Of a stretch of 64,000 nucleotides of DNA, positions 10,743 to 61,856 are shown piece by piece; position 1 is the first letter of the stretch; every line of letters begins with the position of its first letter. Both the position numbers and the translations under genes were made by a program. The notes under the pieces were generated by a model. It was not told where the DNA came from, did no database searches, and worked only from the letters and a program-made list of their open reading frames with translations. This DNA comes from Escherichia coli (GTDB lineage: Bacteria > Pseudomonadota > Gammaproteobacteria > Enterobacterales > Enterobacteriaceae). The stretch is taken from NCBI RefSeq assembly GCF_044324875.1, contig NZ_CP172185.1; one strand, 5' to 3'.

Positions 10743-13538
<2,796 letters not shown>

Positions 13539-44500: not shown

Positions 44501-45297
44501 ATCTTCTTGCAGTAAAACGAATCTTCCCGACCATGATTAGCGGGCAGGAGCGTCTTGCCTGTATGGATGATGCCGCCAGGCTGCGCGATGCTCTCGGCGT
44601 ACGACTACCAGAGTCACTGCCAGAGATTTATTTGCACCGAGTCAGTTACCCGCTTCGCGACCTCTTTCTGCGCTATCTCCGGGCTCATGCTCTGGTCACG
44701 TCTGAACAACTGGCTCATGAGTTTAGTCTCGGTACTGCCATTGTCGAAGAGCAACTTCAGCAACTGCGCGAACAGGGGCTGGTGATGAATCTGCAACAAG
44801 ACATCTGGGTGAGCGATGAAGTATTTCGTCGTCTGCGTTTGCGCTCGCTGCAAGCCGCCAGAGAAGCGACACGTCCCGTTGCGGCCACGACCTATGCGCG
44901 ATTGCTGCTGGAACGTCAGGGCGTATTACCCGCCACCGATGGTAGCCCGGCACTCTTTGCCTCAACATCGCCAGGCGTTTATGAGGGCGTGGATGGCGTG
45001 ATGCGGGTGATCGAACAGCTTGCTGGCGTTGGTTTACCCGCCTCACTCTGGGAAAGCCAGATCCTGCCTGCCCGCGTACGCGACTATTCGCCAGAAATGC
45101 TCGATGAATTACTGGCAACCGGTGCGGTTATCTGGTCGGGGCAAAAAAAGCTGGGTGAAGATGACGGTCTGGTGGCACTGCATCTACAGGAATATGCCGC
45201 AGAATCGTTCACTCCCGCCGAAGCAGATCAGGCGAATCGTTCGGCGCTGCAGCAAGCGATAATCGCTGTTCTGGCTGACGGAGGTGATCAGACATGA
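41584..45297 (+). pseudogene. lhr: ATP-dependent helicase Lhr, inactivated by an in-frame TAA at 43030-43032 and a 3' truncation at the prophage junction
   Basis: ORFs 41584..43032 and 43099..45297 are in the same frame and separated only by TAA; helicase motifs GSGKT and DEVH lie in the first part. The combined length is about 1237 codons against about 1538 expected. Confidence 0.8.
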
Positions 45298-45480
45298 GAT
45301 AAATGAAGGGGGATCCGTGAGATAAATAACGAATTGGAGTGGGTTAACATGGGTTCTGGTGAACAGAACTGAAATTCTTTTCCGCTATACGATAGATAAG
45401 TCGGGCATTGAAATCATCCTTCCTGGCAACTTAGAATCGAGTTTGCTGAAACATGACCCGCAACAAAAAGGATGATTCCA

Positions 45481-45642
45481 ATGACTACTCAAAACAATAA
45501 GCATGATAGCCTGGATTACTCAGAAAAGCCCAAAAGCAAGCACATCGTGACGTTCGAGCGCGATTCCGGTAGAAAAGGAGAATCGTCTTCCTCTGCCAAT
45601 AAAACCACTATGCCGGCAGCCCCTGCCCCAGGGAAAAAATAA
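45481..45642 (+). CDS. Possible small hydrophilic protein (53 aa) at prophage end
   Basis: ATG with AAGGA SD 6 bp upstream; MTTQNNKHDSLDYSEKPKSKHIVTFERDSGRKGESSSSANKTTMPAAPAPGKK. Convergent with the next gene with only 3 bp between stops, so uncertain. Confidence 0.25.
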   Translation: MTTQNNKHDSLDYSEKPKSKHIVTFERDSGRKGESSSSANKTTMPAAPAPGKK

Positions 45643-45645
45643 ACA

Positions 45646-46278
45646 TCATTCATCGTTCGTTGCACGAACGCGCCTGATCTCCACTCTGGCAATCTGATCT
45701 GCTGGAATATAGGTTGCCAGAGCTCCCCAGTACTTATCAACCACGCCTTTATACTCTTCCCATTCGTTACTGCCTGAAGGGCTGCTGTGCGTGACGTAAA
45801 GAACCATATCGCCTTTATTCCCCAGGGTAAACGGACCGTTAGGCCACTCTTCAAAGTTCCCTGGCAGCCGTGACATCATACCGGAACCATCGCGAAGAAT
45901 CACTCTGACCTCGGTAACGCTGAAGCCTGTTTGATCAAACATTGCCTGCCATGCTGAGCTGGTATCGTCAGACCATGAAATATCATTATTCCACAGTAAT
46001 CTGTACATCCATTTGCGACCGTACCTGCGCCACCACGCACCGCATGTAACGGCACACAGAAGTGCTGGTGGTGTTGCCAGCCAGGCATTCAGACCTGCCC
46101 ACATAACAGCCTGGTAAGCCATCATTGCTGTCAGGCCAAAAATCAGCGAAGAAAAAGTCACCTCAATGGGCTTGTGGTGATCCTTCAGTCCCACATTCGC
46201 AATAAAATACCCAATATAGCCACTGGTCAGGGTCACCAGTGTTGCCCATGGCAGATTTAACAACGAAACGTCAAACAT
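45646..46278 (-). CDS. Prophage terminal membrane protein of unknown function (3 predicted TM helices plus about 120-aa soluble domain)
   Basis: Start chosen at MFDVSLLNLPW..., which has a GGGAGA SD; lies downstream of a terminator that follows mor. Confidence 0.6.
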   Translation of the reverse strand: MFDVSLLNLPWATLVTLTSGYIGYFIANVGLKDHHKPIEVTFSSLIFGLTAMMAYQAVMWAGLNAWLATPPALLCAVTCGAWWRRYGRKWMYRLLWNNDISWSDDTSSAWQAMFDQTGFSVTEVRVILRDGSGMMSRLPGNFEEWPNGPFTLGNKGDMVLYVTHSSPSGSNEWEEYKGVVDKYWGALATYIPADQIARVEIRRVRATNDE

Positions 46279-46313
46279 ATTTTCTCCCTGCATCCTGAAT
46301 ACTAAAGAGAGAG

Positions 46314-46349
46314 CATAAAAAAAGCACGGTAAGGGGTCTACCGTGCTTT
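46314..46349 (-). terminator. Rho-independent terminator after mor
   Basis: On the minus strand: GCACGGTA-GACCCCTT-ACCGTGC followed by TTTTTTT. Confidence 0.6.
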
Positions 46350-46392
46350 TATACAATAAGGAGATTTTTGAAAGGACTTTAACAAGCAGGAA

Positions 46393-46791
46393 TTATCTGG
46401 ATTTGTTAACGTCTTTCGTCTCCTCTGGCAGATCTTCATCAAACAACCTGCCCTGCATCCGATCCAGTTCTTCTTTTCTGACCCGCTTAACCACGCTGTA
46501 GACCCACTGAAGCGAAACACCAAACTTGCGGGCCAGTTCGTGGTGGTTGCGTCCGTTAAACTCCCTGAAGATTTCCCGGTCGCGCTGACTGACCTTCCAT
46601 ACCATGCCCATCGGGAAATAAACGTTTTGCCCGCCCCAGACCTGCATCATTCGGTTCGCGACGGCCTGACCAATCTGGTCGGCAATTGCGGGCTCAATAT
46701 CAATAATCTCGCGAACGGTCTCAGAGGTATGCTGTGCCAGCTCCACCAGGAGTTCCGGCCCTTTACTTCGAAACTGATTCAGGTCGCTCAT
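46393..46791 (-). CDS. mor: Mor/C-family transcription activator (Mu middle operon regulator-like)
   Basis: 132 aa with C-terminal HTH (ELARKFGVSLQWVYSVVKR) typical of Mor; last gene of the early operon, after gemA, as in Mu. Confidence 0.75.
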   Translation of the reverse strand: MSDLNQFRSKGPELLVELAQHTSETVREIIDIEPAIADQIGQAVANRMMQVWGGQNVYFPMGMVWKVSQRDREIFREFNGRNHHELARKFGVSLQWVYSVVKRVRKEELDRMQGRLFDEDLPEETKDVNKSR

Positions 46792-47215
46792 GTTTTACTC
46801 CCGCAGCTCTGTGCTGCCACTTCTTCAGTTTCTCAATAACACTGCTTGCCTGTTCAGTATTGAGCCAGCGCAGGGCGCTGATGCCCGTTTCCCGCTTGAT
46901 CCACCGCGCTAATGCATTTTCTGAACGGTCACGAACAATGCCGGCAGCAGCCATTTCAAGCCATAGCGCACGGATTTTCCTGGACTGCGGATGGTTATCC
47001 AGCGGTAAACCGGAGCTGGCTTTTCCGGCAGGCTTAACGCGAAAGCCTTTCCTTTTCATGGATTCCAGCACGCAGTTTAGTTGTGTGGTATCCATTCCTT
47101 TGGTTGAGGCTTTACCGGTCAGCCCCTGTAACATCTGGCGATAGGTGTCTTCATCCATACCCAGTTCATTACGGGCAATATGAATGAGCTGGATAAGACG
47201 TTGTTTAGTCATCAT
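46763..47215 (-). CDS. gemA: GemA-like phage regulatory protein (Mu gp16 family)
   Basis: Core RLIQLIHIARNELGMDEDTYRQML...SRKIRALWLE resembles Mu GemA; start placed at internal Met. Confidence 0.7.
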   Translation of the reverse strand: MMTKQRLIQLIHIARNELGMDEDTYRQMLQGLTGKASTKGMDTTQLNCVLESMKRKGFRVKPAGKASSGLPLDNHPQSRKIRALWLEMAAAGIVRDRSENALARWIKRETGISALRWLNTEQASSVIEKLKKWQHRAAGVKHERPESVSK

Positions 47216-47420
47216 CGTTGCTCCTTTTACCTGCGCCACCGATATAATCGACATATAAAGGAAGCGCCACAGGCCAGCACAGGAACATCACCGACCAGCT
47301 AATCCAGTAGCCGGCACCACTGTAACGTGAATAAAACCCTGAACGGCGGTGCAGTTCAGCAGTACACCAACCGACAAAACAATACCAGAACAGGGCACAT
47401 ACAACAGATTCAGCCGTCAT
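47205..47420 (-). CDS. Small phage membrane protein, hypothetical
   Basis: Hydrophobic 71-aa product from internal Met (MTAESVVCALFWYCFVGW...); the longer upstream extension overlaps the neighbouring gene. Confidence 0.4.
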   Translation of the reverse strand: MTAESVVCALFWYCFVGWCTAELHRRSGFYSRYSGAGYWISWSVMFLCWPVALPLYVDYIGGAGKRSNDDD

Positions 47421-47640
47421 TCTGAATATCCCCCCAACTGATATGAATATTACGGGCAGCAATGACAGGGTCGTTATTCCACCATGCACCTGACATGTAT
47501 TTTTCAACCTGTTCGCGTCCGGCAATAACACCAATTGTGATCCCCGGCCTGACGTTCTTAAAAAAGGCGCGGGCAAAAAGGTATCTGGCAGATATTCGGC
47601 AGGCTTTTAATTTCCGGCTGTTACCTGATAGCGTAATCAT
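47410..47640 (-). CDS. Hypothetical phage early protein
   Basis: 76-aa ORF in an operon-like tandem with overlapping stop/start. Confidence 0.4.
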   Translation of the reverse strand: MITLSGNSRKLKACRISARYLFARAFFKNVRPGITIGVIAGREQVEKYMSGAWWNNDPVIAARNIHISWGDIQNDG

Positions 47641-48320
47641 CTGGCCTCCAGTTTCTGTTGTTCCTGCCCACTGACCGGGCGGTGCAGTCTGACGTTCTGC
47701 CCTTCACGAAACCCCGCATAGCGCGAGGCGTCGCCATTGCGGCTTCTTCCCGGTTTACGCGCCCTGGTGGTTTGCGTCTGCGGGTATTTATGTTCCAGCC
47801 ACTGCTGCATCAGTTCACGCTCATCATCGGTCAGGGCAAAGGACTGTATTTCACTGATAACGGCCAGCACCCAGCCTTCGGCAAACTGGTCTCCACGGCT
47901 GGTGCGGGTGGCGGTTTTTATTCTTTTGTTCTGTGCACTGATATACTGCTGACGCGCCTTTTTCAGCTGACGGGCCAGCACTTCCCAGGTGTATGCAGCC
48001 AGTGCCGCACGTTCCCGGTTGCCGTAGAACCCCACAGACGGATGCGTGCCGGGGTGAATGATGGAGTTAACACCAAATACCTCGCGGATGATGTTCATCA
48101 GGCCTGGCATGTAGCGCGGTGGACGGAGACTGCCTGTCGGCCAGTAGTGACTGATGGTTTCATCAATATCACTCATAGCAATGTCGGAATGTGTGATGCC
48201 GTGAACATCCATCAGTTTACGGGCTCGGCGCAGTGCCAGAGCGGCCTCGTGCGGGTTGCCGGATGCGGCCAGCGCCAGCAACTTTTTCAGTTTCTCAATG
48301 TGTTTATTCTGGTCTGTCAT
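47637..48320 (-). CDS. Hypothetical phage early protein
   Basis: Charged, protein-like composition; start placed at an internal Met to avoid overlap with the upstream gene. Confidence 0.5.
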   Translation of the reverse strand: MTDQNKHIEKLKKLLALAASGNPHEAALALRRARKLMDVHGITHSDIAMSDIDETISHYWPTGSLRPPRYMPGLMNIIREVFGVNSIIHPGTHPSVGFYGNRERAALAAYTWEVLARQLKKARQQYISAQNKRIKTATRTSRGDQFAEGWVLAVISEIQSFALTDDERELMQQWLEHKYPQTQTTRARKPGRSRNGDASRYAGFREGQNVRLHRPVSGQEQQKLEAR

Positions 48321-48532
48321 TGTTCTGTATCTCCGGTATTTTTCTGCCGTTTCCATGCCCGGACAGCGTCGGACAGCTCTTTCAGGCTGTATGCTGCTTT
48401 AAGCTTTTCCCATAACCACTGTGTTGTTATGTGCATCAGCAGGGCAGCCAGGGCTGCCCCCGCACTGAGGCATGTCGCCAGGCCAGTAAGAATCAGTATC
48501 CATGCGGTGATTTCCCTGAGTATGTCAGCCAT
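48317..48532 (-). CDS. Hypothetical small phage membrane protein
   Basis: 71 aa with one hydrophobic helix. Confidence 0.45.
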   Translation of the reverse strand: MADILREITAWILILTGLATCLSAGAALAALLMHITTQWLWEKLKAAYSLKELSDAVRAWKRQKNTGDTEQ

Positions 48533-48546
48533 TGAATGCCTCCCGG

Positions 48547-48843
48547 TTACTCGTTCGTGTAAATCACGCCCAGTCGTGCAGCCAGACGTTCCAGTTTTTT
48601 CTGTTTGTGGAAGTCAATCAGCCGGTCCATCCCCTGAAGGCGCAATTGCTCTGTCATGATTTCCACGTCTGCCAGCTCTGCCGCGAGGTCGCTTTCGCTG
48701 CCCTGTCCGTTCAGATTGCGGGCAGCACTGGCCGCCAGTTCAGCGGCCTCTTCTGTCAGTTTCAGGGCCTGTGCGTCCGGCCCGAAACGCTGCAGGGCCA
48801 GACGGTAGAGGGCGGTGCGGGTGAGTATGGTGTTCCGTGTCAT
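48547..48843 (-). CDS. Hypothetical phage early protein
   Basis: 98-aa ORF in the early operon. Confidence 0.5.
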   Translation of the reverse strand: MTRNTILTRTALYRLALQRFGPDAQALKLTEEAAELAASAARNLNGQGSESDLAAELADVEIMTEQLRLQGMDRLIDFHKQKKLERLAARLGVIYTNE

Positions 48844-48852
48844 GCCGCGCCC

Positions 48853-49125
48853 TCAGTGCTTCCGGCTGACGGTGATGTGCAGGCCGCCTTCTGCAGTGGT
48901 TTCCATCCGGTACGGCACCTCATGCTCTGCCGTGTGGGTGAGTGTGTTCATCAGTACCTGCAGGGCAGCCGCCTTTCCGTTGGTTGCCACAATGGCCTGT
49001 GTGGTCATGCTGATTAGCGCCGTCAGGACGTGCTTCACATCGGTGAGGTCGCGGCATTCACACTCGTTGACATAGTGTTCAACAAGGGTTCGGGTGCGCT
49101 GTCGTGCTTCCTGTGGGGTAATCAT
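48853..49125 (-). CDS. Hypothetical phage early protein
   Basis: 90-aa ORF. Confidence 0.5.
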   Translation of the reverse strand: MITPQEARQRTRTLVEHYVNECECRDLTDVKHVLTALISMTTQAIVATNGKAAALQVLMNTLTHTAEHEVPYRMETTAEGGLHITVSRKH

Positions 49126-49316
49126 TGCGAGTCCTCCCTGTCAGGGCGGGAGAATTCCATGACGGGCACGTCTGCCGAAAAATGCTGGCTGCAGTACGGG
49201 CAGACCAGGGTGACGCGTACCGCAGGGATGTGGTATTTACCGGACATCACGGCGATGGCGCTGTGAAAACGCAGGGCTGTTATATCCCTCTCGCACTGAA
49301 TACATTTAAATATCAT
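49122..49316 (-). CDS. Small zinc-ribbon-like phage protein
   Basis: 64 aa with two CxxC pairs (CIQC ... CPYC). Confidence 0.45.
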   Translation of the reverse strand: MIFKCIQCERDITALRFHSAIAVMSGKYHIPAVRVTLVCPYCSQHFSADVPVMEFSRPDREDSQ

Positions 49317-49413
49317 GATTTAATTCTCCTCTGTTTCCGGCGTGCAGAAGCCCGCGGCGCTGACGCCGGAATAAAAAAGAAAATGTTTTTATTAAATAAT
49401 TAACGTGGTGTGT

Positions 49414-49944
49414 TTACTGCACATCCTGCTCAAAAGGAATTATTGAAAAATCCTCAATGTCGCTTTTAATGGAAATACCGGGAATATTTTTCACGGCCTC
49501 TTTTTCATTCAGGATAGCGTCTTTATTTATTTCCTCTTTTACACGAATAAAGCGCTCAAGCCCCAGACGTCTCAGTAATTCAATAACATTATCCGCCCCA
49601 CGGATACTGACTGATGGCGGACGGTTTCGCCACTGCACCTCGCCGGTGGTAAGGTTAGCGAACTTCACCTTCCCGTTGCCGGTCAGTTCATCACGGTGCG
49701 CCTCACACCATGTCTGGATACCGGACTGCAGTTCGGCCATGCGTTTTTTCAGGCTCTCGGTGAGCGGGGCATAACGTGCGGTGATATCGCCAATGGCGTC
49801 ATTCATTTCTGTTTCAGCCCTGACCAGTTCACGTTGTGCGTCACCGAGTAGTCTGATTCCCTCAATGACCTCTTCGCGTGTCCCTGGTACCCAGAGTGCC
49901 GCTGCGGCCTTGATACGTTTTGCCCCTTTTGTACTTTTTGCCAT
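49414..49944 (-). CDS. gam: Host-nuclease inhibitor protein Gam (Mu Gam family)
   Basis: 176 aa; MAKSTKGAKRIKAAAALWVP...LETEMNDAI...DFSIIPFEQ matches my recollection of Mu Gam along its whole length. Confidence 0.9.
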   Translation of the reverse strand: MAKSTKGAKRIKAAAALWVPGTREEVIEGIRLLGDAQRELVRAETEMNDAIGDITARYAPLTESLKKRMAELQSGIQTWCEAHRDELTGNGKVKFANLTTGEVQWRNRPPSVSIRGADNVIELLRRLGLERFIRVKEEINKDAILNEKEAVKNIPGISIKSDIEDFSIIPFEQDVQ

Positions 49945-49971
49945 ATTTTATGATTTCTCCGGTTGTGCTGA

Positions 49972-50241
49972 TTACCACAAAGATTCCGGCCACACGACGC
50001 GACAGCCGTGCAGTTCGAAAACGCCCTGACGGAAATATCCCCTGTGGTCATGTCCGGTATACAGATAACAGGCCTTTCCCTGCTCAAGCATGCGCATGCA
50101 ATGCGCACTCCGGGAAACGCGGATGACAGGTTTGTTACCCCTGATGGTGATGCTTTGTACATCCGTGTTCGTCGCCTTAAGCGCCATAATGGCTGACTGC
50201 ACTTTGCTGATTTGCTGGTTGATACCTGTGGTGGATTTCAT
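49972..50241 (-). CDS. Hypothetical phage early protein (position of Mu kil)
   Basis: 89-aa ORF directly downstream of the B-like gene. Confidence 0.45.
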   Translation of the reverse strand: MKSTTGINQQISKVQSAIMALKATNTDVQSITIRGNKPVIRVSRSAHCMRMLEQGKACYLYTGHDHRGYFRQGVFELHGCRVVWPESLW

Positions 50242-50243
50242 TA

Positions 50244-51437
50244 TTAAACTCCTTTGACAACGTCAGCGTTGACCTGTGGAACCCCGATTTCAGCGGCCAG
50301 ATTCATGGCGGCTATTACCAGGTTACTGACGGCCAGCGGATACAGCAGGCTGACCATATTTTTACGATGACTTCCCGGATTGCTCAGGCGGGCACGTATG
50401 GCATCCACTGCGCTGGCGTCCATAATGTCCGTCAGTTGTTTACCGGCCCGTTGCAGTTTGAACGTCAGAAATTCTTCAAGGTTATTGTCCAGAGGCAGAA
50501 GTTCGACCACCTCACAGCGCTGAACGACTTCACGGACTTCCATATTGCGTTCAGACAGTTTTGTCGCCAGTTCCGGCTGGCCAATCAGCACGATGGACAG
50601 CAGTTTTTTGAAACCGGACTCCAGCTCAAAAAAGCGTTTGAGGTGTTTCAGTGTCGGAATGGGCAGACTGTGGGCCTCCTCAATCACCAGAACGTGGCTG
50701 AACCCCGCCTGGCTGCTGTCTTTCAGGACGCGATGCAACTGGCGAAAGCGGGCGTCCTGACTGCGTCTGATGCTTTCCAGTGGTGCGATGGTACTGATAA
50801 TGGCTTCGGCAATAGCTGCTGCCTTCAGGGTTTTCCCTTTCACATCGTTGTCTTCCATAGCGATGATGTATGGCTCGATAACAATTACCGGCGCATTCTC
50901 GCGGTTAATACGTTCAGTCAGGTCGCGGCGCAGCGTGGATTTACCCGCACCGGACTCACCGATGACGGCCATAAACCCACCATGACGGGCTGTCTGGTAC
51001 AGCGCCTCACGCACGTAGCGAATGTCCGGGGTGGTGAACACATCATCAGAACCCTGCATGGCTTCATCGGCGAACGGGTCACGGAAAAGACCAAACGCTT
51101 TTTTGGTTGCTGGAAATAACACCTGTTTTTTGAGTAACATATTCTCTTCCTCACTGAGGCTCGTTTTATCTGTGGTACCCGCTGTACGGGGCGTGGCCGC
51201 GCCCTGTACAGCATCAAAACTCTTCGTTGTATCAATCCCCTGACTTTCCAGCCAGGACGCAAGACGCCGGCGCACTTCTCCGGGGCTGGTGCGGGGCCAC
51301 GCGTTATGATTCACAATCTGGGCCAGCGTGGCCTCAGAAACATCGACAGCTCTCGCCGCCACCGCCTGTGGAATACGGGCCTCTTTCAGTTGCTGCTTCA
51401 GTACCAGCATGTTTCCCTCCTCAGTTGCCGTTAACAA
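50244..51437 (-). CDS. Transposition helper ATPase (MuB-like, AAA+)
   Basis: 397 aa; N-terminal HTH-like region then Walker A GESGAGKST and Walker B VLVIEEAH; start overlaps the transposase stop. Confidence 0.8.
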   Translation of the reverse strand: MLTATEEGNMLVLKQQLKEARIPQAVAARAVDVSEATLAQIVNHNAWPRTSPGEVRRRLASWLESQGIDTTKSFDAVQGAATPRTAGTTDKTSLSEEENMLLKKQVLFPATKKAFGLFRDPFADEAMQGSDDVFTTPDIRYVREALYQTARHGGFMAVIGESGAGKSTLRRDLTERINRENAPVIVIEPYIIAMEDNDVKGKTLKAAAIAEAIISTIAPLESIRRSQDARFRQLHRVLKDSSQAGFSHVLVIEEAHSLPIPTLKHLKRFFELESGFKKLLSIVLIGQPELATKLSERNMEVREVVQRCEVVELLPLDNNLEEFLTFKLQRAGKQLTDIMDASAVDAIRARLSNPGSHRKNMVSLLYPLAVSNLVIAAMNLAAEIGVPQVNADVVKGV

Positions 51438-53190
51438 TGCTGATAACGCTGCTGCGGGCCGGCGTGGTCAGCGTGGCCATGACTTCATCCAGTGCGGCTT
51501 CCGGTACGCCGTCCGGGTACTGTGCTGTTAACTGGCGGTAATGTTCCGGCGTCCAGGTCAGGCCGTCGGCGCTGAACTTATCGCGCAGGGCTTTCGCGGC
51601 CTCCACATGAGTCATGGGACGCTGTTCAGTGCGCGGTCCGCGTACGTCAGAGGCCTGACCACGCTTCGGTATACAGGCCGGAAGTGTGGCGTCATCAATA
51701 TGTTTATACGGGTCAAGCCGCCCGCCGAACGGCAGCGCCTTCGCCTTGCGTGCGGCAGCTGCATCTGCGGCGTTGTCTGTACCGGTGACCAGCGCTTCGG
51801 TTTCTTTTGCCGCCATCTGCGCCGGGGTTTCCGGCAGGGCTTTGTAACTTTCGCCAAATACCGCCGCGCCTTCAGCAAAGCCAAACTCGTTCTTTCTGAC
51901 CTCTTCGACCAGGAAGAACGTCTCGTGGCCGTCCTCACCGGTCAGAACCACCTGTGCCACATCGCTGCGCCACGGGTTACGGGTAATCATCAGTTTTTCA
52001 CCGACCAGTACGCCCGGTACCGTTGATACGTCAAATTCAGTGCCCCGGAACGAGACACGAAGTTTTGGCGTGACTTTGCGGAGTTCTGGTGCCGCCACAG
52101 CCAGTTCACGACATACCTCAACGGAAGGCGCTTTTTTCAGCTGCTCAGCAGTAATCTTCAGCCAGATATCCGTGCGGGTTTTACCGTGGCGGCTGTGAAC
52201 AGCCGTGGCGTTAAAGTGGCTGCGCCATTTCGCGGCCAGCGCGTTGAGTTCTTCCAGACTGTGAACCGGCCGGAACTTCAGACCCGGCTCCAGCTTGCGT
52301 TCGATAATGTCACGCGCCTTTTCCACCTGTCCGGTGGCGCGGGCGTTATGCGGCTTGTGCGCTATCAGGTCGATGCCCAGTGAGCGGCACATGTTTTTCG
52401 TCATACCCGCGGTGTTTGCCGAGCCGGGGTCGAGATAGAGTATTTTTGGCACGCCGTGCAGCACGTCTGCGCCGCCACGCTCCTGCATGGCGTTGATAAG
52501 CACAGAACACAGGTTCTCACCGGATTCCGCACCCGTCACATACTCAACGTAAATCCAGCCGCTGGCATGGTCGGTAATCTCGTAACTCCACACGCGGTCA
52601 CTGGCGATACGGGCAAGGTTAGCGGGCTTGTTTTTGTAGAATTTCGCGCTGTCCATCACCTGCAGCCCTTTATGTCCATTGCTCAGGTAGTAAAGCGTGC
52701 AGAGTGAGGCGTCAATCTGCCAGACATGATTGGGGTGCAGACTGGCCACTTCGGTATGCGGTGCAGGGGCATCCAGTTGTTCCGGGTGCAGGCCATAGTT
52801 ACGCAGGGCACGACTGATGGCATCTTCGGACAACGGGAAAAACTCACCGGTGGTTTCATCTGTTCTGCCTGCGGAGATAAAGCCGTTAGCCCGCAGGGTT
52901 TCCACTGCATCCGCGATGGAATAGAGACGCTTACCGTTCTTGCGGGTGGCCTCACGTAGTGTGGCAGATATCAGCGCGGCTTCGTCGCGGGTCAGGGTGC
53001 TGCGTCCGGCATCGGCGCGTTTTTTGCGTTTATCAGTCACAGAGACCTCCTTCAGCCTGCGCAGCAGAGTGGCGCGGGACATGCCAAGTTCAGCACAGGC
53101 AGCGTCGTATATTGCACCGCGTTTACCATGCCCCGCATTACGTGCCGCGCGGGCTGTTTCAACAAGTTTTTCAGTCAGTGCCGGGGTCAT
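51421..53190 (-). CDS. DDE (rve-type) transposase of the transposable phage, TnpA
   Basis: 589 aa; N-terminal HTH then an integrase-core-like region (HVWQIDASL...LYLDPGSANTA); followed by the AAA+ partner as in Mu A-B. Confidence 0.8.
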   Translation of the reverse strand: MTPALTEKLVETARAARNAGHGKRGAIYDAACAELGMSRATLLRRLKEVSVTDKRKKRADAGRSTLTRDEAALISATLREATRKNGKRLYSIADAVETLRANGFISAGRTDETTGEFFPLSEDAISRALRNYGLHPEQLDAPAPHTEVASLHPNHVWQIDASLCTLYYLSNGHKGLQVMDSAKFYKNKPANLARIASDRVWSYEITDHASGWIYVEYVTGAESGENLCSVLINAMQERGGADVLHGVPKILYLDPGSANTAGMTKNMCRSLGIDLIAHKPHNARATGQVEKARDIIERKLEPGLKFRPVHSLEELNALAAKWRSHFNATAVHSRHGKTRTDIWLKITAEQLKKAPSVEVCRELAVAAPELRKVTPKLRVSFRGTEFDVSTVPGVLVGEKLMITRNPWRSDVAQVVLTGEDGHETFFLVEEVRKNEFGFAEGAAVFGESYKALPETPAQMAAKETEALVTGTDNAADAAAARKAKALPFGGRLDPYKHIDDATLPACIPKRGQASDVRGPRTEQRPMTHVEAAKALRDKFSADGLTWTPEHYRQLTAQYPDGVPEAALDEVMATLTTPARSSVISIVNGN

Positions 53191-53205
53191 AGCTTGTCTT
53201 CCCTG

Positions 53206-53523
53206 TTATCCGATTCTGGCGGCAATTTTTCTGGCACGGTCGCGCAGGGTTTCGCCATCGCAGGTTTTCACCACGTTATTTACCGGTTGCGGCGCAACTG
53301 CCGGGCGCAATGCTGACTGATGCTGCAGACGTCTTATCTGCTGCATCAGCATCACTTCCATCGTCAGTACAAACGGATGCGCCTCCTGTGCGGGTACGCA
53401 GATTTCACCGGAAGGTGTCACCACGCGGAAACCCTGCACCATCTCCGGCAGCAGATTACACAGTGCGTGCCCCAGTGCCTCCGGGCTGTCCATCAGGATA
53501 TTTTGTGTGTTATCCGTGTTCAT
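53206..53523 (-). CDS. Hypothetical phage early protein
   Basis: 105-aa ORF between the Ner-like gene and the transposase. Confidence 0.45.
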   Translation of the reverse strand: MNTDNTQNILMDSPEALGHALCNLLPEMVQGFRVVTPSGEICVPAQEAHPFVLTMEVMLMQQIRRLQHQSALRPAVAPQPVNNVVKTCDGETLRDRARKIAARIG

Positions 53524-54440
53524 TACTGCATGCCCTCCGGTCGGTTGATTTCAGGCTCCGGTTCGGTCAGCCATGCGGGGACATCGTTACCCGATGGTGC
53601 GGCATCAAGGTCGAACGTCTCACGCAATGCATGAACACTGCGTTCAATCTGGCAGACCAGACCGGCCATGAAATCTCTGGGGGTATCAATCATGTTTTTA
53701 CTGCAGTATTCACACAGGGTTTCAAAGGCACCGGAGAGCCGGACGGCGATGGCAGATTCCGCCTCAACCGCTAATGCGGTCACTTCCGCCCGCAGCTTCT
53801 TCACCTCTTCATCAGGCTCAGGCGGTTGAATACGGGATTTCTTCTCCAGTTTTGTGGCCAGTTCGTTGATTTTTTCGTCCTTTCCGGCAAGCACCTGTTG
53901 CTGAGCTGCGTTAGTTTCGCGCGCTTCACGCAGGGCCTGGCGAAGTTCACGTACTGACATGCGATCAACATCATCAAGCGTCAGGCCGGCAACTGTGCCG
54001 CCGTCGGCCAGTTCGGCAAGGTCTTCATCGTCTTCAGCAACAAGTTCAAATAATTTTGCCTTACCCAAAAGCGACAACGTTGTCGCTTTTGGCTCTAGTT
54101 TTGGTGAAAGGTATTTCAAAGATGCTTTCATCATTCGTTGTGCTGCGCGCACGTGCAAACCAAGTTGTTCTTCTACAATTCCAACAAAGTCCCCGTGTGG
54201 CTCATTTTCTTTTAAGATGATCAGCCGTTTACCCGCTTCCAGCATAGATTCAGCACTCTGCGCCATATAAAAACGTGCTTCGTGAACGATGCGATCACGT
54301 TCATAAGGCAGTCCATCACCAAACTGCTGCATGATCTCCATGCGATGCTGTGTCATGGCATTCAGGCTGACGTTGAGATCATCCGACAGCGGTACCTCGG
54401 CGTTCAGTTCAGTGTTAACCGGTGATTTGGTGCGTCCCAT
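53523..54440 (-). CDS. Hypothetical acidic, helix-rich phage early protein
   Basis: 305 aa with long charged helical segments; family not recognised. Confidence 0.55.
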   Translation of the reverse strand: MGRTKSPVNTELNAEVPLSDDLNVSLNAMTQHRMEIMQQFGDGLPYERDRIVHEARFYMAQSAESMLEAGKRLIILKENEPHGDFVGIVEEQLGLHVRAAQRMMKASLKYLSPKLEPKATTLSLLGKAKLFELVAEDDEDLAELADGGTVAGLTLDDVDRMSVRELRQALREARETNAAQQQVLAGKDEKINELATKLEKKSRIQPPEPDEEVKKLRAEVTALAVEAESAIAVRLSGAFETLCEYCSKNMIDTPRDFMAGLVCQIERSVHALRETFDLDAAPSGNDVPAWLTEPEPEINRPEGMQ

Positions 54441-54450
54441 TGATTACTCC

Positions 54451-54765
54451 TTACAAACGACTACCTGAAATGACACGTTGGTTGATTTCGTTAATGCGAT
54501 CCTGTGCACGTGCCATCTCGTTACTGTGGGCCATGGCGATCTGCAGCAACTGGATGCCCGGTGCGAAACGCCCGTTTTCCAGTTTCAGGGCCAGTCCTTC
54601 TTCAATGAGGGTGTTGAGTGCCCGGTTGATGTTTGCCGGTGACTCGTGCAGTGCTGCCGCCAGTTCACCATTGGAAATACCGTTCAGGGCATGACCGCGC
54701 AGCGCTTTGAGTACCCGGAGGATGCGACTGCCGGAGCTTGAAACATTCGTCTTACTCATCTGCAT
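54451..54765 (-). CDS. Putative winged-helix DNA-binding protein
   Basis: 104 aa; SRILRVLKAL...GISNGELAAALHESPANINRALNTLIEEGLA resembles IclR/MarR-type HTH regions; AGAGG SD present. Confidence 0.5.
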   Translation of the reverse strand: MQMSKTNVSSSGSRILRVLKALRGHALNGISNGELAAALHESPANINRALNTLIEEGLALKLENGRFAPGIQLLQIAMAHSNEMARAQDRINEINQRVISGSRL

Positions 54766-54811
54766 ACCTCTTTTGCGATATGTGATAACCTTTTACAAAG
54801 AATCAAAATAT

Positions 54812-55000
54812 TCAGGCTGCCTGAGCTGTTGATTTCAGCCCCAGTTTCACGGCGATTTCATGGGATTTACCGTAACGTGCTTTGCTCTGCCCATTGAGAA
54901 CGCGGTATACCTCATTGCGGTTGTAGCCGTTTTCTTCTGCCCAGCGGGTGAAAGTGATCCCGCGCTGGCGGAAGAGAGCTTTGACTTGTTCTGCAGTCAT
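54812..55000 (-). CDS. Ner-like (Cro-analog) DNA-binding protein
   Basis: 62 aa; strong SD AAGGAG 8 bp upstream; spacing of G-T/S, NG, and KxxIAxxLG residues parallels Ner/Nlp; divergent from the repressor. Confidence 0.6.
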   Translation of the reverse strand: MTAEQVKALFRQRGITFTRWAEENGYNRNEVYRVLNGQSKARYGKSHEIAVKLGLKSTAQAA

Positions 55001-55100
55001 CGTTGTCTCCTTTGTTGATGCAATGATGTTTGCCTTATGTGTGATAGATTATGGTGCAGATTATCTCACCAGTCAACTTAAAGAGTGCAGAAAAACTCAC
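55001..55100. promoter_or_regulatory. Divergent promoter/operator region between Ner-like gene and repressor
   Basis: 100-bp intergenic region containing GTGATAGATTAT and an inverted copy AGATTATCTCAC. Confidence 0.45.
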
Positions 55101-55439
55101 ATGATCGGGTTACGTATTAAAGAAGAAAGAGAGCGTCTATCTCTTACACAGCAAGGGTTGGCTGATGCTATCGGTGTGGCAAAGAGAACTTTTATTGATT
55201 GGGAAAAAGATCGCACTTCTCCTACTGCAGTGCAGTTATCTGCACTATCAGAAATCGGTGTAGATGTTTTGTATGTAGTTACTGGGGTGCGGAGTCAGCC
55301 TGTTGTTGCACCTTATATGTCACAAGAAAAGAAAGAGTTAATGGATGCATTCGACGAGATGAGCCCCGAACAACGGAGGGCAATTCTTGAGGTCGGCAAA
55401 GTCTTCATTCAACCCAAACCAAGCAAACTCGCAGGCTGA
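55101..55439 (+). CDS. Phage repressor, HTH_XRE (Cro/C1-type)
   Basis: Start at internal ATG (MIGLRIKEERERLSLTQQGLADAIGVAKRTFIDWEKDRTSP), 112 aa. Confidence 0.7.
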   Translation: MIGLRIKEERERLSLTQQGLADAIGVAKRTFIDWEKDRTSPTAVQLSALSEIGVDVLYVVTGVRSQPVVAPYMSQEKKELMDAFDEMSPEQRRAILEVGKVFIQPKPSKLAG

Positions 55440-55524
55440 TTCTGACCTGGACAGAAAGGACAGGTGGTTGATCTGGATGCTTTCAGAAAACGCCGTCAGT
55501 AGCATGGCAGAAATCGGCGGGCTT

Positions 55525-55560
55525 ACCGGAAAGCACTGTACTTTCCGGTTATGGCTTTTA
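55525..55560. terminator. Terminator between repressor and dam
   Basis: Hairpin ACCGGAAAG..CTTTCCGGT followed by a T-rich tract. Confidence 0.45.
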
Positions 55561-56322
55561 GAAATTGCAGATCACCAGCTCACGGCGTGGAGTTGATTTG
55601 CCTGCCAGACTGTAGTTGATGTTCACTGTCTGTATGTTCAGTCCAGTGAACACCTCGCGCATCTGCGGGATGTCGTTCACCGAAATTATCATCTTTCCTC
55701 TGATGCACCGGGCCAGCTCTGCCAGCCGCGAGTAGTTCCCTTCAGGAAAATCCACACCATAGCCTTCTGTACCCAGATACGGCGGGTCACAGTAGAACAG
55801 CGTGTGCGGACGGTCATAGCGCTCAATGCACTGTTGCCAGTCCATGTGTTCTATCACCGTTCTGGAAAGCCGCAGGTGTGCCGCTGACAGTTCTTCCTCG
55901 ATACGCAGCAGGTTGAAGCGTGGCGGGGATGTGGTGGAGGTGCCGAAGCTGTGCTCTGCCACCTTGCCGCCAAACGCCTGCTTCTGGAGGTAGTAGAACC
56001 GTGCTGCACGCTGGATATCCGTCAGTGTTTCTGTCGGGGTGATCTGCAGCCATTTGTAGATCTGCCGGCTGACCAGCGCCCATTTGAACTGGCGGACAAA
56101 TTCTTCCAGATGATGTTTTACCACCCGATACAGATTTACCAGTTCACCATTGATATCGTTAATGACTTCGAGCTTACCAGGTGTCTTAAGAAAATAGAGC
56201 GCTGCTGCGCCGCAGAACGGCTCCACGTAACATTCATGCGCCGGAAACAGCGGCAGGATGTGTTTTGCCAGGCGACGTTTGCCACCAATCCATGGAACGA
56301 TGGGTAATGTCTGCATTTTCAT
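55558..56322 (-). CDS. dam: DNA adenine methyltransferase (Dam-like, no adjacent restriction gene)
   Basis: 254 aa; SAM motif EPFCGAAALYF and catalytic DPPY. Confidence 0.85.
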   Translation of the reverse strand: MKMQTLPIVPWIGGKRRLAKHILPLFPAHECYVEPFCGAAALYFLKTPGKLEVINDINGELVNLYRVVKHHLEEFVRQFKWALVSRQIYKWLQITPTETLTDIQRAARFYYLQKQAFGGKVAEHSFGTSTTSPPRFNLLRIEEELSAAHLRLSRTVIEHMDWQQCIERYDRPHTLFYCDPPYLGTEGYGVDFPEGNYSRLAELARCIRGKMIISVNDIPQMREVFTGLNIQTVNINYSLAGKSTPRRELVICNF

Positions 56323-56514
56323 AATCTGTAAGCCTTTTACAATTATTAAAAATATGGCAGGCTAGTCTGGTCTCGCGAGACTGACTGAACCCCGGTCGGC
56401 TCACAGCGCATTCCTGTGGGACGATGGCCAGCCCGGTGGGTCCGAAGCACCGGGCTGGTCGTTCTTTCATGATGCGGCAGGGATGAAGTGATTTCTGTTA
56501 ATGTGGTTTAGGGA

Positions 56515-56730
56515 TTATCCGGGGCGATTTTCTGACCTTATCTGGTCCAGGGCATAAGTGATCCCTTCTGCAAAAACAGAAGTATCAAACTGCTTTTGTA
56601 TTTCCTGAAAATGAACAGTGGCACGACAGACACTCAGTTCTCCGCGATGTAACCGGATAATATCTTCCAGAACATTGTTCACTGCTTCGGCACGGCGCTG
56701 ATGTTCTGTTAACGTTAATCGGGGATTCAT
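56515..56730 (-). CDS. Hypothetical 71-aa phage protein
   Basis: Strong SD AAGGAG 6 bp upstream of ATG; no family recognised. Confidence 0.55.
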   Translation of the reverse strand: MNPRLTLTEHQRRAEAVNNVLEDIIRLHRGELSVCRATVHFQEIQKQFDTSVFAEGITYALDQIRSENRPG

Positions 56731-57107
56731 GATGCACTCCTTAAATGATGATTTTTATGTACTCACCGGCAAAATATTCTGCCGATTACTGAACACGCAT
56801 CCGGCTCCTCAGGTTTTGATTTATTCTGGTTTTTTCGATATCCCGGACCAGGTTGATCACGACAGAAAAAGTGCCGGTATTTTATTGATACGCTGATATG
56901 GCTTCGGGATAACAGCTATATTCGTTACTCTCAGTTGCTGGCTGTGGGAGCGGCTGATGTCGTCCTCACGGAAAAAACGCTCTGTCTGCTCAATGCCATG
57001 CCGACCTTTCTGCAGCCCCGGCCCGTACCATTTAAAGAGTCACTTCTGGATGCAGTAAAAACCGGTGAAAATGCAGTCATCGCTGAATGCGTATCCCGGA
57101 TTATGCG

Positions 57108-57656
57108 TTACGTGTTTAATGAACGTAAGTGAGGTTTATCCGCTGTCTGCATAATCCCGATAGCCAGTGCGAGGGGAAGCAATTCCGGGGAAACTCTTTC
57201 AAACAGCGATTCCCATTCTCCTCTCGCCATCACTCTGTCCAGCCCGCCCTCCAGCTGCATTTCAGCAATCTTCCTGATTTCCCGGAACAACGCCGCTTTG
57301 ATCTCTTCATGCTCAGCTTTATTTTCCGGTGTCAGAATGTATTCGTCGAAGAACCGGGGAGGCTGGTTAACGGGGGGCATGTTCACCGGGATGTGTTCCT
57401 GTATCCCGTACTCCGGGGCTGAAAAACATTTTGTTGTCTGACCGGTGAGTTTGCGTAACACCTTCATGAGTTGCTCCTGAAGCAGCTCATTCGTCCGACA
57501 GATACGCTCGTCGTCCACAACTGCGGCATCGACAATGACGCTTTTTCCAAATTCCTTTTTCACCATCTCTTTTATACGCGTCAGAACGTAACTTTTACCG
57601 CTGCCTACAGGCCCGGACACTCTGACGGTGATGGTCGGCTTCGGTGTGACTGTCAT
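57108..57656 (-). CDS. P-loop NTPase-like protein of unknown function (182 aa)
   Basis: Start at internal ATG with SD AAGGAGA 7 bp upstream; Walker A GPVGSGKS at residues 14-21; divergent from the lysis cassette. Confidence 0.6.
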   Translation of the reverse strand: MTVTPKPTITVRVSGPVGSGKSYVLTRIKEMVKKEFGKSVIVDAAVVDDERICRTNELLQEQLMKVLRKLTGQTTKCFSAPEYGIQEHIPVNMPPVNQPPRFFDEYILTPENKAEHEEIKAALFREIRKIAEMQLEGGLDRVMARGEWESLFERVSPELLPLALAIGIMQTADKPHLRSLNT

Positions 57657-57787
57657 TCTGTATCTCCTTTGTGAGTGATCCAGCGTGTATTCTGCATACC
57701 CCGAACACGCCTCTCTCTTAACGCGCTTTAAAATCCTCCGCGCCACGCTTTTGCCATGCTGTCTCCACACAACAAGGAGACATTTTC

Positions 57788-58138
57788 ATGAAACCATTCA
57801 CTTCCCTTATCGTTGACGTACAAAAAACCCGCCTGCGTGGATGGCTTGTTGCGGCCGTGCTGCTGCTCCTCATCATCGCGCTGGTCTCACCCCAGCAGTT
57901 GCCGGTGGTGGTGTACAAGCTCTCTCTCATCTCCCTCGCCGCCGTGCTCGGCTACTGGCTGGACCGCTCACTCTTCCCGAAGGCCCGTCCGGGGCAGTAC
58001 CTGAAGCATGACGAGCGCCTCATGGCTGAGGGGCGCTGGCCCGTACAGACCGGCCTTCACCTGGTGTTTTCTGCTGCGTTAATCCGCCGTGCACTGATTG
58101 TTGCAGCTGTCTGTCTGGCTGTTGCGATGGGGCTTTAA
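57788..58138 (+). CDS. Putative holin (membrane protein, first late/lysis gene)
   Basis: 116 aa with 2-3 hydrophobic helices; AAGGAGA SD; immediately precedes the endolysin. Confidence 0.55.
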   Translation: MKPFTSLIVDVQKTRLRGWLVAAVLLLLIIALVSPQQLPVVVYKLSLISLAAVLGYWLDRSLFPKARPGQYLKHDERLMAEGRWPVQTGLHLVFSAALIRRALIVAAVCLAVAMGL

Positions 58139-58875: not shown

Positions 58876-59167
58876 CCTGCTAAAAAATCTGCCGTGGCGC
58901 AGTCTGCTGCTGGCAGTGCTCATAAATGCTTTTCTGATTGGACTTTATTACCTGGGCTACAAAAGTGCAAAATGGCATCTGAATCGATCGCAGTTTGGCA
59001 TTCGAATCGATCATGATTTGGCATCCATCTCCGATCACAGTTTGGCATCACAATCGATCACGATTTGGCATGCTTCCGATCATTGATTGGCATCCTGCCA
59101 GTCACTCCGGGAATTAACTCTTTTCACCACAGTCTCCATTGCCGTGTTTAAACCAGTGGAGACGTCA

Positions 59168-60733: not shown

Positions 60734-60749
60734 CAGAAGGAACAACAGT

Positions 60750-61505
60750 ATGAGTGATAACCTGTTAAACAAACTGACCCAACTGAAACTCCCGGCGATG
60801 GCCGGGAGCCTGATACGGCAGCGGGAAACGCCTCAGACCTACGACGAACTGTCGTTCGAGGAAAGGCTGACGCTGCTGGTTGATGACGAGCTTCTGAGCA
60901 GGGAAAACAGCCGTGTGGCACGGTTGAGAAAAAATGCCGGCCTGAAATACCAGGCAACACCGGAAGGGCTGCGCTATCCGGCCTCAAGAGGTCTGCGGGC
61001 TGAACAGATGAGAGAACTGCTGAACGGCCACTACATAACCCACAGGAAAAACCTGCTGATAACCGGTCCGACAGGATGTGGCAAGAGCTGGATAGCCAAT
61101 GCGCTGGGCGAACAGGCATGTCGACAGAAACACAGCGTCCGGTACTGTAGAACCGGGCGATTACTGGAACAACTGGCTCAGGGACGTGTTGATGGCAGCT
61201 GGCTGAAATATCTGAAACAGTTGCAAAAAATACAGGTTCTAATCCTGGACGATCTGGGGCTGGAACAGTTAAGTAACGCCCAGTGTAATGACCTTCTGGA
61301 GCTCATAGAGGATCGTTACGGACAAAGCAGCACGATAGTGGTAAGCCAGTTCCCGGTAGATAAATGGCATGGTCTGATGGAGAACCCAACAACAGCAGAT
61401 GCCATCCTGGACAGACTGGTACATAACTCACACCGAGTGGTCCTTCAGGGAGAGTCACTGAGGAAAAATCCCCCGGTAGTGGAAAGCAGCGAAAAAACGC
61501 GTTAA
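60750..61505 (+). CDS. istB: IS21-family helper ATPase IstB
   Basis: 251 aa; Walker A GPTGCGKS and Walker B LILDDLG; start at internal ATG (MSDNLLNKLTQLKLPAMAGS). Confidence 0.85.
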   Translation: MSDNLLNKLTQLKLPAMAGSLIRQRETPQTYDELSFEERLTLLVDDELLSRENSRVARLRKNAGLKYQATPEGLRYPASRGLRAEQMRELLNGHYITHRKNLLITGPTGCGKSWIANALGEQACRQKHSVRYCRTGRLLEQLAQGRVDGSWLKYLKQLQKIQVLILDDLGLEQLSNAQCNDLLELIEDRYGQSSTIVVSQFPVDKWHGLMENPTTADAILDRLVHNSHRVVLQGESLRKNPPVVESSEKTR

Positions 61506-61856
61506 AAAGCGGTAGAAAAAGTTAAGTTCCCGGTTGATCGAATGGATGCGAATCGCTGATCGGACTTCGATGCCAATCCGTGATCGAATAGAGCGGAATA
61601 CGCAAAAGCGGGCATGAAAACGCCACGCGCGACGGCGATAAGGCGATCAGTGAGTTGCAGTCAGCATTCGACACATACAAAACGGAGCAGGCAATGCTTG
61701 AGAACGCTGCATTGCGAGCATGGGCAAAACGGTATCAGGAGCAGGTGGCCGCTGGGCAGCAGGCTGAGGCCGGTTATCTTGAGCAGATTGCTCAACTGGA
61801 GAGTCAGAACAAACAACTACAGGGGCAAATTAACGATGTCACACAGCGCTGGATTG

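Follow-up and report, generated by a model that had tools for sequence, protein, structure and literature searches.

The Escherichia coli DNA analysed here, a 64-kb stretch that we call the window, carries at 49414-53190 a Gam protein of the Mu family and, nearby, a transposase that is unlike MuA. This combination raises the question of whether the two genes were brought together by recent exchange between transposable phage lineages or belong to an inherited early operon. The original prediction, made from the letters alone, favored exchange of early-region genes.

A BcepMu-type prophage and its early operon

Position 45285 to beyond 64000 is, with high probability, the left portion of a transposable prophage of BcepMu type (Bcepmuvirus-like, PhiKM-type), whose early operon carries an inherited Gam and a non-MuA transposase. 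The prophage is visible over its left 18.7 kb in the window, and the interval 49414-53190 is the middle of its early (transposition) operon. The relevant features are as follows.

45285..45327: left (Mor-side) end of the prophage, inside lhr, starting with 5′-TG
46393..46791, minus strand: Mor-type late or middle transcription activator (PF08765, E 1e-43), last conserved gene of the early operon
46763..47254, minus strand: GemA (Mu gp16) homologue (PF06252, E 1.6e-40)
47637..48356, minus strand: DUF2786/DUF7168 protein (PF23771 and PF10979), in the variable 'semi-essential' early region
49414..49944, minus strand: gam, Mu Gam-family protein of 176 aa (PF07352)
49972..50241, minus strand: orf89, an 89-aa ORF between B and gam (phrog_2041)
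50244..51437, minus strand: B-like transposition ATPase (AAA_22; PGAP 'ExeA family'; PF13401, E 4e-20), its true start likely the ATG at 51410
51421..53190, minus strand: BcepMu/B3-type DDE transposase (TnpA) of 589 aa with an rve core
53206-53523, minus strand: orf105, within the DUF3102-orf105-transposase block
53523-54440, minus strand: DUF3102 protein (PF11300)
54451-54765, minus strand: IclR-type HTH protein, among the first early-operon genes
54812-55000, minus strand: Ner-like small DNA-binding protein, also among the first early-operon genes
55101..55439, plus strand: divergently transcribed HTH_3 repressor (PF01381), with the start of the PGAP model of an identical prophage
55558..56322, minus strand: Dam-type N6-adenine DNA methyltransferase (PF02086, E 1e-28), a prophage gene

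Transcription of the early operon, along the minus strand, would start at a promoter adjoining the divergent repressor gene, where a site at 55076-55048 (TTGACT-17-CATAAT, minus strand) is promoter-like by consensus match only. The genes of the operon are, in order, Ner-like, IclR-HTH, DUF3102, orf105, DDE transposase, B-like AAA+ ATPase, orf89 and Gam, followed by several small ORFs, DUF2786, GemA and Mor. The original prediction located the gam and transposase ORFs, both on the minus strand, correctly but had the two side by side, whereas the B-like ATPase and orf89 lie between them. The early operon points toward the left end and is followed, beyond the divergent repressor, by lysis and Mu-like head genes on the opposite strand; within the window these include genes for a holin, an SLT endolysin and a Mu gp27-like terminase small subunit, and the tail genes lie past its edge. 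An rve-type core paired with an AAA+ ATPase is also the arrangement of Tn552, Tn5053 and Tn7, and the locus might on that account be a non-phage Tn552/Tn7-like transposon with gam as cargo. The phage structural and lysis genes rule this out for any practical purpose: Mor, GemA, holin, endolysin and terminase small-subunit genes are all in the window, and three complete phages with head and tail genes, PhiKM, KP12 and BcepMu, are collinear with the element.

Matches to other E. coli copies of the prophage start at window positions 45282-45285, which marks the left boundary. The left end starts with TG and contains TGAGATAAAT twice, at 45295-45304 and 45318-45327, and the two copies are probably transposase-binding repeats; neither the right end nor the target-site duplication falls within the window. 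TG...CA ends are characteristic of BcepMu relatives (PMC2628397). BcepMu itself has TG ends laid out alike, with similar terminal repeats (TGAAGAGAGGTGAGATATTT...), and the same repeats are present at the ends of relatives. The window copy is inserted in lhr and an identical prophage in kefF in strain MS1494, as expected for transposition, and among the complete E. coli genomes searched none shared the lhr junction. Prophages elsewhere in E. coli were 100% identical over 45285-58000. The transposase gene was present in 638 of 5426 complete E. coli genomes and the gam allele of the window in 620 of the 5426; the prophage type occurs in about 11% of them. It is well populated and already annotated (PGAP names the two products 'host-nuclease inhibitor Gam family protein' and 'DDE-type integrase/transposase/recombinase'), and the finding is an ordinary one.

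A 2.6-kb IS21-family element (~58968-61602) was found in the lysis cassette of the window copy but not in PhiKM or L018. Because it breaks the lysis region, the window copy may not complete a lytic cycle. This insertion, together with the fact that the visible part is the left 18.7 kb only, would fit a decaying remnant whose early genes no longer form a working transposition and end-protection module. We consider such decay unlikely, since the insertion leaves the early operon untouched, the left end is intact, and the early ORFs are all intact and are matched in the isolated phage PhiKM as well as in hundreds of genomic copies.

Affinities of Gam and of the transposase

Gam matched PF07352 (Phage_Mu_Gam) over profile positions 1-148 of 149 (E 9.9e-41; 139.6 bits against a cut-off of 28.3) and phrog_491 'Mu Gam-like end protection' (E 5.5e-73), and aligned by tblastn with Mu Gam at 61.5% identity from residue 6 to residue 174 of 176, so that the predicted match along the whole length of Mu Gam was borne out. 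The Gam profile also matched a solved Gam-like structure, 2P2U (E 2e-12), and the homology suggests that the protein binds double-strand DNA ends.

In the transposase, the domain search returned PF00665 (rve) only, at residues 152-282 (E 1e-8), with an N-terminal HTH below threshold. No match to PF02316, PF09039, PF02914 or PF09299 was obtained at E ≤ 0.01, whereas MuA, the positive control, matched all four, PF02316 and PF09039 at E 1e-41 and 4e-48. The transposase therefore has a generic rve core and an N-terminus unlike that of MuA, as had been claimed. BLASTP detected no similarity to MuA (E 0.41), and a profile-profile alignment with MuA-type transposases (hhalign) was weak (probability 20%, E 0.0012): it took in only the latter half of the core plus the beta-rich domain that comes next, and left the N-terminus out. 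When the transposase alignment was searched against PDB profiles, neither MuA nor TnsB was matched, and retroviral integrase cores were matched marginally (E 0.04-0.9). Residues D160, D254 and E290 of the rve core, the putative catalytic DDE triad, were invariant in an eight-sequence alignment and aligned with the WQxD, DNG and G-x-V-E motifs of retroviral integrase cores. AlphaFold, given an alignment of eight sequences, did not yield a usable model of the transposase (mean pLDDT 54, catalytic core <50). The gene directly after the transposase encodes an ExeA/AAA_22-type B ATPase rather than MuB: it matched phrog_296 'DNA transposition protein' and showed neither similarity to MuB (E 2.5) nor a MuB C-terminal domain. 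The window prophage lacks each of the following Mu features: the N-terminal DNA-binding domains of MuA, the DDE_2 core model, Mu-transpos_C and the MuB C-terminal domain.

The closest named relative is Escherichia phage PhiKM (PQ738613, Bcepmuvirus), which has the same gene order. The early genes from Mor to Ner-like were 84-100% identical to those of PhiKM, most of them 91-100%, with the exception of one small ORF (64%): Mor 91%, GemA 96%, DUF2786/DUF7168 protein 100%, Gam 100%, B 99%, transposase 99% and DUF3102 84%. With these few exceptions similarity to a single phage was uniform, which largely amounts to the outcome that had been named in advance as refuting the exchange originally predicted. 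Outside the early operon the Dam-type methyltransferase was 98% identical, but orf220 (62%) and the repressor (34%) differed; the low identity of the repressor indicates an immunity type different from that of PhiKM. Prophages of the type of the Klebsiella phage KP12 clone and Escherichia phage Phi06_2974 B were similar in transposase (92%), B (93%), Mor (94%), GemA (86%) and Dam (85%).

The Burkholderia phage BcepMu (NC_005882) and phiE255 share the layout of the window prophage, with an early operon that runs leftward and finishes with GemA and Mor at the genome end, then a divergent repressor, lysis genes and Mu-like head and P2-like tail genes. Identities to BcepMu were 68% for the transposase (gp09, over 98% of its length), 59% for B (gp08), 56% for Mor and 44% for GemA; BcepMu has HU and SSB-like genes, which the window prophage does not. 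Siphoviruses that infect a different host, the Pseudomonas phages B3 and H72 have the same early-operon layout, with transposases 56-57% identical (56% over 100% of the length for B3 A) and B 55% identical over its full length. Their DUF2786/DUF7168 proteins were 34% identical to that of the window prophage, and a gene-by-gene comparison found no counterpart in BcepMu or KP12; the PF23771/PF10979 pair also occurs downstream of gam in the MuA-type prophages L093 and L094. Mu shares Gam, GemA (34%) and Mor (32%) with the window prophage and, presumably, a replicative-transposition lifestyle, but the early operon of Mu reads away from the nearest genome end whereas that of the window prophage reads toward it. 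Pairwise comparison of the early genes, the check that had been proposed, did return a Mu-like Gam with a transposase and B that are not, but BcepMu-type relatives matched the transposase and B too. The transposase differs from MuA because a BcepMu/B3 (Tn552-like) transposase and ATPase are common to the entire lineage; it did not replace another transposase in a Mu backbone.

The pairing could nonetheless mark a recent chimera, formed when a phage of another transposable lineage took up a Mu-lineage gam, or else a foreign transposase, by recombination. Gam stands at 61.5% to its Mu counterpart, whereas for the transposase and B no similarity to MuA and MuB could be detected; a recent transfer, however, should have left an identity far higher than this. 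Gam is also missing from BcepMu, phiE255, KP12 and B3; however, the closest Gams (75-80%) were all found in the same slot of BcepMu-type prophages, those of Salmonella, Klebsiella and Dickeya. A neighbor-joining tree of Gam resolved an enteric BcepMu-type clade (79% bootstrap) and a Mu-type enteric clade (73%), which were joined in none of 500 bootstrap replicates; the tree is distance-based, and its deep nodes were weak (46-58%). There is one clear cross-lineage case elsewhere, in which the Gam of H72 (B3-type) grouped with that of D3112 (MuA-type) at 100% bootstrap, both being 66% identical to the Gam of the window, but the window Gam itself never grouped with the Mu clade. In addition, the early operon matches PhiKM closely and other E. 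coli prophages at 100%. Because the nearest Gams occupy the BcepMu-type slot and the Mu-type Gams form a separate clade, we conclude that Gam was not recently imported from Mu, and a fresh hybrid with Mu is highly improbable.

Modularity of the early region

No Gam was found in BcepMu, phiE255, KP12, Phi06_2974B or B3, which have DUF3164 in the slot instead (gp05 at the equivalent position in BcepMu; PF11363, E 3e-80, in the KP12 and Phi06_2974 B type), and a PHROGs scan detected no cryptic Gam among the small early ORFs of B3, BcepMu and KP12. When 82 complete BcepMu/B3-type early operons were searched by tblastn, the slot held Gam only in 29, DUF3164 only in 47, neither in six and both in none, and an HMM search of 99 sources gave 36 with Gam, 52 with DUF3164 and none with both; these counts do not represent independent events, because many of the 80 IMG/VR loci (the best 80 of at least 498 confirmed) are near-identical. 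Apparent 'Gam' matches in three DUF3164 loci were spurious, being due to the C-terminal extension of the D3112 'gam' annotation (266 aa), and were left out. A 63-aa 'host nuclease inhibitor' adjoining DUF3164 in Mannheimia phage 3927AP2 was not Gam-like.

Clean swaps were observed on three backbones, which are unrelated. In the enteric BcepMu-type backbone, KP12-like prophages with Gam exist (L010 and L081) and are collinear with the DUF3164 form before and after the slot; orf89 is the conserved left flank, and the collinear alignment of L081 with L026 stops just past it. The B3-type backbone carries Gam in H72, which likewise combines a BcepMu/B3-type transposase with a Mu-family Gam, and DUF3164 in B3. 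In the MuA-type Casadabanvirus backbone, the swap is seen between D3112 and Ab30, which were 96% identical in both flanks. Gam and DUF3164 may accordingly be non-homologous interchangeable cassettes, with DUF3164 serving in the RecBCD end protection provided by Gam or in an equivalent early task, a reading that we put forward only tentatively. DUF3164 was found in 209 phage records, and the literature searched (on DUF3164 and on Gam in BcepMu-type phages, with partial coverage) nowhere states the alternation. As a modest side lead, the alternation offers a testable functional hypothesis for DUF3164.

A second kind of exchange involves the transposase gene. Starting at the B gene, L076 was 97-100% identical to the window all the way to the end, whereas its DNA identity was only 33-66% over DUF3102-orf105 and most of the transposase gene; the two transposase alleles are 64% identical. 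The orf105 and DUF3102 genes, which as a pair (53206..54440) matched phrog_5446 and phrog_1748, thus form a single exchangeable block together with the transposase gene. For identity to the window, Gam also tracked B (rho = 0.85) more closely than it tracked the transposase (rho = 0.65). A swap of the transposase block between near-identical prophages that keep their terminal repeats bears on the co-evolution of transposases with end specificity. These results indicate that modularity is real at deeper levels but does not take the form of a local mosaic: exchange of early genes, as predicted, is evident in the Gam/DUF3164 swaps and in the L076 block, but not in the pairing at this locus, given its match to PhiKM. 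Mosaicism of this slot- and block-swap kind is already known in transposable phages.

Proposed working of the module and its meaning

We assign roles to the transposase, B and Gam by homology. By analogy with Mu and BcepMu, the transposase would bind the TGAGATAAAT repeats at the TG...CA ends and, with the ATPase, would integrate the genome and then replicate it by transposition, while Gam, a Ku-like binder of double-strand ends, would shield linear phage DNA from RecBCD. Gam occupies a replaceable slot of the variable early region, where sister lineages hold the unrelated DUF3164.

As the literature on BcepMu and B3 has established (cited in PMC2628397 and PMC8705779), BcepMu/B3-type phages have a pool of Gam, GemA and Mor in common with Mu and a Tn552-like transposition engine. 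The combination of a Mu-family Gam with a non-MuA transposase is, with high probability, the stable inherited make-up of an enterobacterial BcepMu-type sublineage, and finding a Mu-like Gam close to a transposase unlike MuA is no mark of a hybrid.

Early genes of a common BcepMu-type prophage

Four minus-strand ORFs fill 49414-53190, and a divergent repressor lies farther along the window:

49414-49944, minus strand: Gam, 176 aa
49972-50241, minus strand: orf89, an 89-aa ORF
50244-51437, minus strand: B-like ATPase (AAA_22), 397 aa; the start probably differs (PGAP start of the identical gene, 51410)
51421-53190, minus strand: transposase, 589 aa
55101-55439, divergent from the early operon: HTH_3 repressor, with a Dam methylase beyond

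The original prediction placed a Mu-like Gam beside a non-MuA-like transposase; both ORFs are real, but two genes (orf89 and the ATPase) separate them. Gam was Mu Gam-like along its whole length, as predicted, matching PF07352 nearly end to end (E 9.9e-41, profile positions 1-148 of 149) and Mu Gam with 61.5% identity over residues 6-174 (tblastn). The transposase likewise proved to have a generic rve-type core without the MuA N-terminus. The core (residues 152-282) was the only domain above threshold, an N-terminal HTH gave a sub-threshold match, and D160, D254 and E290 are conserved. A domain search found none of HTH_Tnp_Mu_1, HTH_Tnp_Mu_2, DDE_2 and Mu-transpos_C in this protein, all four of which were matched by the MuA positive control. 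No significant similarity was detected between MuA and the transposase by BLASTP (E 0.41), or between MuB and the ATPase (E 2.5). In a profile-profile comparison with six MuA-type transposases the relation was weak (probability 20%, E 0.0012) and confined to the latter half of the core plus the beta-rich domain that comes next.

The early operon runs on the minus strand in the order Ner-like, IclR-type HTH, DUF3102, orf105, transposase, ATPase, orf89, Gam, four small ORFs (one MazG-like), DUF2786/DUF7168, two small ORFs, GemA, Mor and a 236-aa ORF. After the Dam methylase, a holin, an SLT endolysin and a Mu gp27-like terminase small subunit are encoded on the plus strand. Gene order and orientation agree with those of BcepMu, and Escherichia phage PhiKM (Bcepmuvirus) matched 83% of 45300-58000 at 96% identity (megablast). 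Matches to E. coli prophage copies start at 45282-45285, where the end sequence is TGATCAGACATGAGATAAATGAAGGGGGATCCGTGAGATAAAT; the BcepMu ends are of the same design (TGAAGAGAGGTGAGATATTT...). TG...CA termini and an rve-core, Tn552-related transposase are hallmarks of BcepMu relatives (PMC2628397). The prophage is inserted inside lhr; strain MS1494 has an identical one that interrupts kefF, consistent with transposition to different sites. Of 5426 complete E. coli genomes, 638 carried the transposase gene and 620 the window gam allele; the feature at 49414-53190 belongs to a prophage type that is known already and very common. By analogy with Mu and BcepMu biology, the transposase would bind the terminal repeats and, with the ATPase, carry out integration and replicative transposition, while Gam would bind the ends of linear infecting DNA, blocking RecBCD, and Mor would turn on later genes.

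Both the lysis cassette and the host gene are disrupted:

58968-61602: IS21-family element, directly after the SLT endolysin gene
59087-60733: IstA (rve and Mu-transpos_C_2)
60507-61505: IstB (PF01695)
41584-45297: lhr, damaged twice

The comparison locus L018 and PhiKM are collinear across the IS21 gap with a 6-8 bp overlap, the target duplication. Because the gene after the endolysin is interrupted by this element, the window copy may be lysis-defective. An in-frame TAA (43030-43032) divides lhr into 482-aa and 732-aa ORFs. E. coli Lhr is about 1538 codons long; on that basis, some 300 codons at its end are lost to the prophage, whose end lies at 45285.

Relationship to reference phages and origin of Gam

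The pairing had been read as modular exchange between transposable phage lineages, a reading that uniform similarity of the early genes to a single reference phage would refute. Such similarity was found in PhiKM by tblastn: Mor 91%, GemA 96%, DUF2786 100%, MazG-like 98%, Gam 100%, orf89 100%, B (the ATPase) 99%, transposase 99%, orf105 92%, DUF3102 84%, IclR-HTH 99%, Ner-like 98% and Dam 98%, the exceptions being one small ORF (64%), the repressor (34%) and orf220 (62%). The low identity of the repressor, next to an early operon that is 84-100% identical apart from that small ORF, indicates an immunity-region swap between close relatives. Transposase and B were 92 and 93% identical to those of KP12, 68 and 59% to those of BcepMu, and 56 and 55% to those of B3; neither had a tblastn match in Mu or D3112. 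The same search found no Gam in KP12, Phi06_2974B, BcepMu, phiE255 or B3, and found it in H72 (66%), D3112 (66%) and Mu (62%). Having a non-MuA transposase is characteristic of the lineage and does not reflect import.

Beyond the E. coli cluster, the nearest Gams (75-80%) occur in Salmonella, Klebsiella and Dickeya; each of the three contexts examined is a BcepMu-type prophage in which gam occupies the same slot, again following B and an ORF of ~90 aa. Erwinia and Salmonella Gams at 66-68% sit in MuA-type prophages, and a Gilliamella Gam at 65% in a BcepMu-type one. In a neighbor-joining tree (500 bootstraps), the window Gam grouped with the enteric BcepMu-type clade (79%); Gams of Mu, Erwinia and Salmonella formed an enteric MuA-type clade (73%), and the two clades were joined in 0% of bootstraps. 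The Gams of H72 (B3-type) and D3112 (MuA-type) grouped at 100%; this Pseudomonas case was the only clear exchange between lineages. Among 14 BcepMu/B3-type loci with Gam, identity of Gam to the window correlated with that of B (rho 0.85) and of the transposase (rho 0.65). The nearest Gams, the clades and these correlations together argue that the window Gam is a long-standing partner of the transposition module, not a recent arrival from Mu.

The Gilliamella locus (L095, 5693-7474) has a BcepMu-like layout with the transposase at 32% and Gam at 65%; here too, divergence or replacement has affected the transposase much more than Gam. In the Erwinia and Salmonella MuA-type prophages (L093, L094), the same DUF2786/DUF7168 gene as in the window lies downstream of gam, so several accessory early genes beyond gam are common to both transposase types.

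Exchange at the gam slot and the transposase block

KP12, BcepMu and B3 carry DUF3164 in the position equivalent to gam (PF11363, E 1e-80 or better). A tblastn census covered 82 BcepMu/B3-type early operons with transposase, B and Mor all present, drawn from the window, reference phages, three genomic contexts and the best 80 of at least 498 confirmed IMG/VR loci. Gam alone occurred in 29, DUF3164 alone in 47, neither in 6 and both in none, counts that include many near-identical loci and are not independent events. An HMM search of 99 sources gave 36 with Gam, 52 with DUF3164 and none with both. Each state was seen on backbones of every transposase-identity class; among the E. coli genomes, KP12-type DUF3164 was found in 24 and gam in 620.

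Of two enteric BcepMu-type loci, L026 has DUF3164 and L081 has Gam; they align collinearly up to 12206 and again beyond the slot, and the slot itself (12207-12859) is their only difference there. The MuA-type phages D3112 and Ab30 are 96% identical on both flanks of the replacement, and similarity between H72 and B3 breaks exactly where the slot gene ends. Altogether, clean replacement in this slot was seen in MuA-type Casadabanvirus (L006, 7565-8350; L096, 7630-8229), enteric BcepMu-type (L026, L081) and B3-type (L007, L004) phages.

A second exchange involves the transposase. Between about 51600 and 45646, a stretch that holds B, gam and the rest, the window and locus L076 share 97-100% identity. 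Over window 54450-51650, the counterpart of L076 7000-10900, identity is only 33-66%; this part comprises DUF3102, orf105 and the greater part of the transposase gene. The breakpoint is ~230 nt short of the transposase stop codon, and the two transposase proteins are 64% identical. This second allele is paired with KP12-like B genes in four other loci (L079, L080, L083, L085), and the terminal repeats ATTTATCTCA(C/T)G are kept with both alleles.

Mosaicism of this kind in the "semi-essential early region" belongs to the usual account of transposable phages (PMC2628397; PMC8705779), and Gam is reported in 30 of 47 genera (PMC8705779). The original observation is confirmed and its interpretation partly supported: the Gam-transposase pairing is not a recent hybrid, but modularity is real at the gam slot and at the DUF3102-orf105-transposase block.
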